Shown here piece by piece: positions 10,174 through 12,687 of a stretch of DNA of 64,000 bases. The stretch comes from Gemmatimonadota bacterium. GTDB taxonomy: Bacteria; Gemmatimonadota; Gemmatimonadetes; Longimicrobiales; Gaopeijiaceae. The stretch covers positions 1 through 64,000 of the forward strand of contig JBDHHQ010000001.1 of NCBI GenBank assembly GCA_039589315.1, read 5' to 3'. The notes below the pieces were generated by a model that saw only the letters and a program-made list of their open reading frames with translations, had not been told where the DNA came from and searched no databases. Numbering within the stretch: position 1 is the first letter of the stretch; each line of letters starts with the position of its first letter. The translations under genes and the position numbers were made by a program.

Positions 10174-10232
10174 TCATCCCGCTCCGCCCGACGAGGCGGA
10201 GCCCGCGTTTTTCACGACGGACCGAGGGAGAG
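10174..10232 (+). promoter_or_regulatory. Putative S6:S18-binding rpsF leader RNA
   Basis: Hairpin GCTCCGCC-CGACGA-GGCGGAGC (10181-10202) followed by CCG (10203-10205); upstream TCCC can pair with SD GGGA (10226-10229). Confidence 0.6.
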
Positions 10233-10239
10233 TCGTATC

Positions 10240-10881
10240 ATGCGTCTCTACGAGATCGTCTACATCTTCGACGCCGCTCTGGACGAGGCCGGCGTCAACC
10301 TCCATCTGGAGGAGCACCACCCGCTGCTCACCCAGGTCGAAGGCGCCGAGATCGTCGCGGTGGACCACTGGGGGGCTCGCCAGCTCGCCTACCCCATCGA
10401 CAAGAAGAAGACCGGCTACTACGTGGTGGCCCAGGTTCGCACCGACCCCGAGGCCCTGCCCGAGTTCGAGCGCCGCGTCGGGTTGAACGAGCAGATCATG
10501 CGATACCTGGTGGTGCTCAACGAAGGCGAGCCCACGCGGGGCATGTCCATCCAGAAGCCCGACACCCGGGTCCGGGAGGATGACGACGACGACCGCGGCG
10601 GCCCCGACGATGACGGAGATGCCGAGATCGTGACCCACCGGTCGGCTCCACCCGAATTCAGCGGAGGCCGTGGGCGGCGTCGGCGCATCGAAGGGCCTGC
10701 CATCGAGCTCCTGAACTACAAGGACGTGGCCACCTTGTCGCGGTTCATGACGGAGCAGGGCAAGATCCTGCCGAAGCGGACGACGAAGGTGACGGCCCGA
10801 TTCCAGCGTCAGCTCGGACGCGCGATCAAACGTGCCCGGTACCTGGCGCTCGTCCCCTACGTTCGAGACCACGAGGTCTGA
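10240..10881 (+). CDS. rpsF-rpsR: Fused 30S ribosomal proteins S6 and S18 (single 213-aa ORF)
   Basis: S6: [35 protein letters not shown]; acidic linker; S18: [43 protein letters not shown]; no in-frame stop between them. Confidence 0.9.
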
Positions 10882-10887
10882 GGCGGA

Positions 10888-11826
10888 ATGCACGCCAGCC
10901 ACCGAGAGGGTCGGGGGTGGCTTCGCGCTGCGGCGCTGCTGGCTTTCACGGCCGGCTTCTCGGTCCTGCAGCCCGGCGTCCTGGTCGCCGTCCCGTTCGT
11001 TCTCCTGGCATTCATCCTGCCGCCCCATCGGATCATGGCCCTACTCCTGGCGAGCGCGGTCGGCTATCTGGTGTTTCGTGGCTCGGGTCAGCCTGGTGTG
11101 TGGTTCATCGAGCGGGGGTGGGCCCTGTTGCTGGGCGGCTGGTTCGTAGCCCTGACGCTGCGTTGGCCCGGGAGCGGCTTTGCCAGCCGGGCTCTGGGCG
11201 CGCTGGGCGGAGCCCTGGCGGTGACGGCCTCCATCCTCGCGGTGCGGCCCGGCGAGTGGGCGGTGGTCCGCTGGCTCGTCGACTCACGCATTCGCCAGGG
11301 GCTCGGGTCGGCCCTCGAGGCGTTACGGCTGATGCAGGGCGACGGGGAGGTCTCGGAGGCGCTGGCAAACGCCGCCTACCGGACCGCCGACATCCAGAGC
11401 GCGGTGTTCCCGGCGCTCCTCGGGCTGACGTCGCTCTCGGCGCTGGGCGTGGCGTGGTGGCTATACGTGCGGCTGGCACGCGGAAGCGACCAGGGGGTCG
11501 GCCCTCTCAGGGACTTCCGGTTCAACGACCAGCTGATGTGGGTGGTGATCGCTGGACTGGGCGCGTTGCTCTTGGGGTCGAGCGAGGCGTGGTCGGAGGC
11601 AGGCACGAACGCCCTCGTATTCATGGGCGCGCTGTATGCGCTCCGAGGGGCCGCGGTCGTGGTGTTCCTGTACGGCGGGTTGAACCTGCTCGGAATGATC
11701 GTGTTCGTGTTCGGGTTGCTGTTCGTGGCGCCGATCGTGGTCATGGCTGCCATGGTCATCGGGATCGGAGATACGTGGCTGGACCTGCGCTCGCGGGCGA
11801 CGCCCCGGGCGGAGGGCGGGTCTTGA
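10888..11826 (+). CDS. DUF2232/YybS-like multi-pass membrane protein
   Basis: Multiple TM segments, FRFNDQLMW, GIGDTWLDLR tail; position between rpsR and rplI. Confidence 0.75.
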   Translation: MHASHREGRGWLRAAALLAFTAGFSVLQPGVLVAVPFVLLAFILPPHRIMALLLASAVGYLVFRGSGQPGVWFIERGWALLLGGWFVALTLRWPGSGFASRALGALGGALAVTASILAVRPGEWAVVRWLVDSRIRQGLGSALEALRLMQGDGEVSEALANAAYRTADIQSAVFPALLGLTSLSALGVAWWLYVRLARGSDQGVGPLRDFRFNDQLMWVVIAGLGALLLGSSEAWSEAGTNALVFMGALYALRGAAVVVFLYGGLNLLGMIVFVFGLLFVAPIVVMAAMVIGIGDTWLDLRSRATPRAEGGS

Positions 11827-11848: not shown

Positions 11849-12304
11849 ATGAAGCTCATCCTGAAGCGAGATGTGCACAACCTCGGGACGTCCGGGGACA
11901 TCGTGAACGTCAAGCCGGGCTACGCACGGAACTACCTTCTTCCCCAGGGTCTGGCGTACGTCGCCAGCGACGCCAACCTGCGCCGGATCGAGCTGGAGAA
12001 GCAGCAGGTGGAGGAGCGGGGGAAGCGGGACTACTTGGAAGCGCGCAGGCGCGCCGCACAGCTCGCGGGCCTGGTCCTCACCTTCCACGCCAAGGCCGGC
12101 GAGGAGGGCAAGCTCTTCGGGTCCGTCACCGCTGCCGACATCGCGGACCGGGCCGGTGAGCACGACCTCGACTTCGATGTGGACCGCCGCAAGATCCTCC
12201 TGGACGAGCCCATCAAGCAGCTCGGGGCCTTTCCGGTTACGATCCGCCTCGGATCCGAGGTGGACGCCGAGATAGAGGTCCGGGTGGAGCGGGCCACCGA
12301 GTAG
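11849..12304 (+). CDS. rplI: 50S ribosomal protein L9
   Basis: LGTSGDIVNVKPGYARNYLLP, GKLFGSVT. Confidence 0.97.
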   Translation: MKLILKRDVHNLGTSGDIVNVKPGYARNYLLPQGLAYVASDANLRRIELEKQQVEERGKRDYLEARRRAAQLAGLVLTFHAKAGEEGKLFGSVTAADIADRAGEHDLDFDVDRRKILLDEPIKQLGAFPVTIRLGSEVDAEIEVRVERATE

Positions 12305-12315
12305 GCGAGGCCGAG

Positions 12316-12687
12316 ATGCAGCGTGCTGCTGAACGGGCCACGCCCGAGCTGCCGTCCGTGGTGAGTCAGGCCGCGGAGGTCGCCCTCGAGCGAAAGTCGT
12401 CGGACGTCGTCGCCCTGGACCTCCGGGGGATCTCCTCGGCCACGGACTACTTCGTGATCGGCTCCGGAACGTCCGACATACACGTCCGGTCCATCGCGGA
12501 GCACATCGAGGAGGCGTTGCGCAAGGAGGGACACCGTCCCGACCACGTCGAGGGTAAGGCCGGGGGGACCTGGGTGCTCCTGGATTACATCGACTTCGTG
12601 GTGCACGTCTTCCACTCTGCGGCGCGGGATTTCTATCAACTCGAGCACCTGTGGGGGGACGCACCGCGGGTCGCCTTCGAGGACTGA
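12316..12687 (+). CDS. rsfS: Ribosome silencing factor
   Basis: TDYFVIGSG, WVLLDYIDFVVHVF, RDFYQLEHLW. Confidence 0.95.
   Translation: MQRAAERATPELPSVVSQAAEVALERKSSDVVALDLRGISSATDYFVIGSGTSDIHVRSIAEHIEEALRKEGHRPDHVEGKAGGTWVLLDYIDFVVHVFHSAARDFYQLEHLWGDAPRVAFED

Follow-up and report, generated by a model that had tools for sequence, protein, structure and literature searches.

Are ribosomal proteins bS6 and bS18 made as one chain in the bacterium from which this DNA derives, and, if so, is the fused gene an established feature of its lineage or a local accident? The question is raised by an ORF at positions 10240-10881 (+) of the window, that is, of the whole 64,000-nt stretch that was analysed. 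This ORF runs without interruption over 213 codons and a stop codon, and encodes an S6 domain, an acidic linker, and an S18 domain. Pfam profile PF01250 (Ribosomal_S6) matched residues 4-92 of the fused protein with 82.5 bits against a cut-off of 27, and PF01084 (Ribosomal_S18) matched residues 158-204 with 73.7 bits against a cut-off of 21. The NCBIfam equivalogs gave matches over residues 1-93 for TIGR00166 (S6; 76.7 bits, cut-off 42.9) and residues 155-210 for TIGR00165 (S18; 78 bits, cut-off 38.75). The ORF was the sole match to PF01250 and the sole match to PF01084 in the assembly. The fused gene encodes a full bS6 and a full bS18 on a single ORF: the reading of the two proteins as one polypeptide, given in the preliminary description of this DNA, holds, with one stop-free frame and both domains above the cut-offs of both collections.

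The anatomy of the protein was derived from profiles, structure prediction, and alignment. The bS6 domain corresponds to residues 1-100 (10240-10539, +) and was delimited using PF01250, TIGR00166, AlphaFold2 (AF2), and Foldseek. AF2 modelled two confident domains (pTM 0.63), with pLDDT values of 85-90 for residues 1-100, and the S6 fold matched bS6 chains of solved ribosomes with target-normalised TM scores of 0.8-0.9 and an E-value of 1e-9 in Foldseek. Residues 101-136 (10540-10647, +) form an acidic linker, present between the domains just as had been described; its pLDDT was below 50, as expected of a disordered segment, and it includes an in-frame GTG at 10630-10632. The alignment of fused proteins defined a junction motif at residues 137-149 (10648-10686, +), consisting of PPEF followed by a basic S18 N-terminal patch. 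The cysteine-free bS18 core and the stop codon occupy 10687-10881 (+; residues 150-213), as delimited using PF01084, TIGR00165, and phmmer. In phmmer, the S18 part matched bS18 chains of solved ribosomes with an E-value of 1e-17, the values for bS18 and bS6 chains overall being 1e-17 to 1e-11. No single chain among the best 60 of the 123 PDB sequences matched covered both halves.

Downstream of the fused gene, Pfam searches identified a gene for a DUF2232 membrane protein (10888-11826, +), which begins 6 nt past the fusion stop and lies between the fused gene and rplI, followed by rplI itself, encoding bL9 (11849-12304, +), and the gene for RsfS (12316-12687, +). Compared with the canonical bS6:bS18 heterodimer of the Escherichia coli and Thermus thermophilus 30S subunits, both fused domains are full-length and belong to the same families, and the gene lies near rplI, as in many bacteria. 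The differences are that one chain replaces two, that the domains are joined by about 40 to more than 100 residues of acidic, disordered linker, and that neither ssb nor priB lies between the S6 and S18 halves. An antisense ORF of 284 codons (10174-11028, -) overlaps the entire fused gene. In DNA as GC-rich as this, chance alone often yields antisense ORFs of such length.

We evaluated the distribution of the fusion in related genomes, using f1 for the family of the source organism and f2-f7 for sister families of Gemmatimonadota, of which f2 and f3 belong to the same order. The depositors' labels of the related records were Gemmatimonadota, mostly 'Longimicrobiales bacterium' MAGs, and all relatives found were uncultured MAGs. 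In a sample of 40 close relatives, a single match without interruption, reaching from residue 1 to at least residue 209, was obtained in 22 of the 24 f1 genomes; in the remaining two there were two matches, which shared one frame and lay in one open frame. A sample of the order comprised 251 genomes, 106 of them from f1, and an S6-S18 match was obtained in 105 of the latter, the missing one being a 93%-complete MAG. The match was uninterrupted in 71 of the 105 and consisted of two matches in 34. Sequences were examined for 20 of these 34 loci, and each of the 20 proved to be one continuous ORF encoding 229-294 aa, with a longer linker; for six others, coordinate arithmetic placed the two halves in one frame. 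A fused single ORF was thereby established in 97 of the 105 f1 genomes with a match; the other eight were outside the examined set, and none was seen split.

Similarly, all 80 loci returned from a collection of species representatives were fused, 79 of them by one tblastn alignment and one (L111) by frame reading, and several sit on chromosome-scale contigs. A protein search retrieved 1829 relatives of 117-373 aa; among the matches listed, all 120 contained both Pfam domains. Two genomes that are marked unpublished (G115 and G405) are counted in these tallies; no claim depends on them. The survey by profiles and tblastn that had been proposed for related genomes thus found both domains on one protein throughout the f1 genomes examined and no uninterrupted match outside f1. 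The S6-S18 fusion is confirmed as real and as common to the whole of family f1. One fused locus (L105, JAHEKL010000139.1) comes from a MAG labelled Gammaproteobacteria, and its protein is 63% identical to that of the window; the label probably reflects a binning or labelling issue.

Outside f1, no uninterrupted S6-S18 match was seen in the order sample or in a sample of the phylum comprising 201 genomes, 177 of them non-f1. All 16 of the f2 and f3 genomes among the close relatives presented S6 and S18 as two matches, with S18 open frames of 76-120 aa. In the order sample, 28 f2 and f3 genomes gave one match; 26 of these matches spanned both halves with a stop inside, and the other two were taken as matches to a single half based on their weak E-values. 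The one-match non-f1 genomes of the phylum sample likewise had 1-3 internal stops, in 20 of 20 cases.

The junctions read in 20 split loci consisted of an S6 acidic tail and then a stop codon. In one set of junctions, the rpsR ATG followed the rpsF stop by 0-3 nt, in the same frame, in 9 of 14 split loci. In split relatives with a same-frame junction, GAGGAG codons in the acidic tail of S6 also make up a sequence resembling a Shine-Dalgarno (SD) element before rpsR. The split rpsF-rpsR loci of f2-f7 resemble the fused gene in gene order, in the acidic S6 tail, and in a related 5' leader, and are 45-64% identical to the fused protein in S6 and 49-68% in the S18 core. Unlike the fused gene, they have a stop codon after S6 and a separate ATG for S18, located either 0-3 nt further on or in a different frame. 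Moreover, the split S18 begins with MRRQxKxCPxCE, whereas the fused S18 has a PPEFSGGRG extension instead.

Because sister rpsF and rpsR lie 0-3 nt apart, often in the same frame, the comparison points to loss of the rpsF stop codon as the way in which the fusion arose. The simplest reading of the distribution is a single origin at the base of f1, as the fusion was present in every f1 genome examined and unseen elsewhere in the phylum sample. The sister lineages display how easy this route would be, since a stop codon and 0-3 nt are all that separates their two same-frame genes.

The linker was characterized using 95 unique relatives. Measured between the S6 domain and the RRRR patch, it comprises 41-129 aa of unconserved sequence rich in D (18.6%), E (17.1%), and G (12.9%). 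The 95 unique ORFs encode proteins of 30 different lengths, from 204 to 243 aa; longer-linker members of the family reach 294 aa, always in frame. In a total of 16,203 nt of linker, frame 0 contained no stop codon, whereas frame +1 contained 13 and frame +2 contained 263. The absence of frame-0 stops despite the variable length indicates that the open frame is maintained by selection. The origin of the linker from the C-terminal acidic tail of S6 is supported by the split sister genes, in which S6 ends in a like acidic tail with its stop directly before rpsR. The suggestion of a natural tethered S6-S18, with the S6 tail serving as linker, is therefore borne out by a frame kept across the family and by the same tail on the split S6 of sister lineages.

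The junction behaves differently from the preceding linker. Across 124 aligned fused proteins, residues 137-149 were invariant or at least 90% conserved, and the commonest form among the 95 unique ORFs ends in the RRRR patch. In Firmicutes bS18 chains, the segment aligned to the residues from G142 onward is the basic N-terminus. The PPEF element is specific to family f1.

The S18 half is further distinguished by its lack of cysteine. The fused S18 of the window contains none and lacks the zinc-type CxxC motif, and cysteine was absent from 92 of the 95 unique fused proteins. By contrast, the split S18 of sister lineages carried CxxC in 6 of 6 and 11 of 13 loci read, in two sets. The fusion is thus accompanied by a change to an S18 of the zinc-independent type. 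According to passages of PMC5912738, S18 occurs in zinc-binding and cysteine-less forms, and the loss of zinc-binding cysteines is a feature that the fused S18 has in common with the zinc-independent mycobacterial S18-2 described there. The f1 protein differs from S18-2 in that it is the sole copy, with no alternative paralogue, and is fused to S6.

Based on these data, we consider it probable that the single chain is built into the 30S platform uncut, its S6 and S18 domains pairing within the molecule and the former acidic tail forming a loop in solvent. One polypeptide would then supply both bS6 and bS18 to the platform, and the two domains would occupy their usual sites as an intramolecular heterodimer while the expanded S6 tail, acidic and predicted to be disordered, looped into solvent. 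A single event in an ancestor of the Longimicrobiales family f1 would have created the fusion, when an rpsF adjacent to rpsR, 0-3 nt from it and in its frame, lost its stop codon. Passages of PMC4647458 state that S6 and S18 heterodimerise before they bind the rRNA-S15 complex. For two proteins that must dimerise before meeting 16S rRNA, a covalent 1:1 link may have replaced translational coupling. On this reading, the f1 lineage would represent a natural, long-fixed experiment in tethering such proteins, and the 30S platform would tolerate an acidic loop of 40 to 130 residues between S6 and S18, which could be of use in ribosome assembly studies and in the engineering of tethered ribosomal components.

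A recent frameshift or an assembly error had been raised as possible causes of the open frame, and an error of binning or a pseudogene would have a similar effect. The source assembly is a MAG of 6.67 Mb in 288 contigs (95% complete, 5% contamination), which leaves some room for such an artefact. Against this, more than 100 assemblies, obtained independently in many studies and some of them single-contig chromosomes, carry the same fusion, which excludes both a recent frameshift and an assembly error; the fused gene is the only S6 and the only S18 of its genome, with both domains scoring as equivalogs; and a DNA contig that covers 10497-10886 in a close relative differs by a net +3 nt and stays in frame across the linker. 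We consider artefact or decay, as a whole, to have a negligible probability. None of the public sequencing runs held at least half of the sampled words of the stretch, the best share being 0.18; four runs supplied contigs of relatives, and those from RNA libraries covered parts of the fused gene only, with none bridging the linker. The preliminary description had also pointed to an internal S18 start, such that S18 would be made also, or mainly, from a site such as the GTG at 10630, the fusion being a by-product. Indeed, this GTG (10630-10632, V131) is in frame, GGAG lies 11 nt upstream at 10616-10619, and the nearest relative or relatives keep the valine; the TGA of the GTGA is out of frame. 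However, apart from the window itself, the V131 GTG is restricted to the nearest relative or relatives. An in-frame ATG, GTG, or TTG within 20 codons upstream of RRRR was found in only 19 of the 95 unique ORFs, and such a codon together with an SD-like motif in only six of the 95. The residue after RRRR was M or V in 60 of 94 proteins and H, I, or F in 34. Finally, frame 0 of the linker would not remain open if there were no need for a fused frame. These counts lend no support to a conserved start within the gene, and we regard internal initiation as very improbable as the source of S18.

A somewhat better candidate, still unlikely in our judgement, is that the protein is a polyprotein, translated as one chain and then cut in or beside the linker, for example at PPEF-SG, so that S6 and S18 would be separate in the ribosome. 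Such cleavage would fit a junction motif that is nearly invariant at the S18 boundary after a freely variable linker, and a linker whose predicted disorder would make it accessible to proteases. Nevertheless, no protease or self-cleaving element is apparent, and distant S6-S18 fusions have unrelated junctions. Moreover, as the residues from G142 onward align with an ordinary basic bS18 N-terminus, S18 function accounts for much of the conservation of the motif. We infer that the uncleaved chain, with its intramolecular S6:S18 pair, is the form incorporated. A wider reading would make the fusion more than a stoichiometry device: the acidic loop and PPEF would provide a new function on the ribosome, or the tether would have allowed loss of the zinc knuckle, a zinc-sparing change. 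The loop and PPEF would presumably be placed on the platform of the 30S subunit, next to the mRNA exit and the anti-SD region, and could, for example, tune SD-dependent initiation or dock a factor. We consider this reading doubtful.

The fused gene is preceded by a conserved structured leader at 10178-10228 (+), defined by the alignment and consensus fold of 54 leaders of fused loci. It comprises three paired elements: P1, in which CCC (10178-10180) pairs with the GGG of the SD sequence (10226-10228); P2, a 7-bp hairpin formed by 10181-10187 with 10196-10202; and P3, CCGU:ACGG, formed by 10203-10206 with 10217-10220. The 54 aligned leaders contain 19 invariant columns, and the consensus fold has 14 pairs, only three of which show compensatory changes. 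Of 94 unique upstream regions, 93 contained the pattern CCCGCUCCG...CGGGGCCCGU...ACGGACCGAGGGAG directly before the start codon. The split rpsF genes of sister families have a simpler P1+P2 leader upstream, which lacks the P3 hairpin of f1. A search of Rfam with a 141-nt stretch, at E-values up to 10, returned no match to the leader, only miRNA-type matches at chance level.

Passages of PMC4647458 (Babina et al. 2015) describe repression of E. coli rpsF by the S6:S18 complex through its leader, and an rpsF leader widely distributed across bacteria. As far as those passages describe it, the published rpsF_leader resembles that of f1 in being a conserved structure directly 5' of rpsF with the SD sequence in a helix; the f1 leader differs in having an extra P3 hairpin and no Rfam match. 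Positions 10178-10228 are probably an autoregulatory site for the S6-S18 product, a putative assignment made from sequence: by sequestering the SD element, the leader would let the fused product repress its own mRNA. As no Rfam family was matched, we go no further than to say that the f1 leader may, by analogy, be the counterpart of the E. coli rpsF leader.

A search of 1.84 billion cluster representatives revealed proteins, 149-266 aa in length, that are 28-47% identical to the fused protein and match it in both halves. Thirty were picked from 150 among the matches listed, and all 30 contained both Pfam domains above cut-off. To judge from their sequences, the f1 fusion is not unique, the same architecture recurring in distant lineages. 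The distant proteins share the domain order on one chain and differ in their short, neutral or basic junctions, which have neither a long acidic linker nor PPEF; several keep cysteines. Given the identity of 28-47%, the unlike junctions, and the cysteines kept in several, they look like separate events. Ten of these distant clusters were looked up; most were singletons at 90% identity, and two occurred on several contigs.

The f1 fusion represents a variant, spread throughout its lineage, of a well-known pair rather than a new kind of system. We found no paper describing a natural S6-S18 fusion in the full-text literature; PMC2837039 mentions fused clusters, and the pair rpsF-rpsR is absent from those of its passages that we consulted. 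The sources that name the fused proteins call them mostly 'ribosomal protein S6' only. With such naming, S18 can seem absent when these genomes are scored with marker-gene sets for phylogenomics or for estimating completeness.
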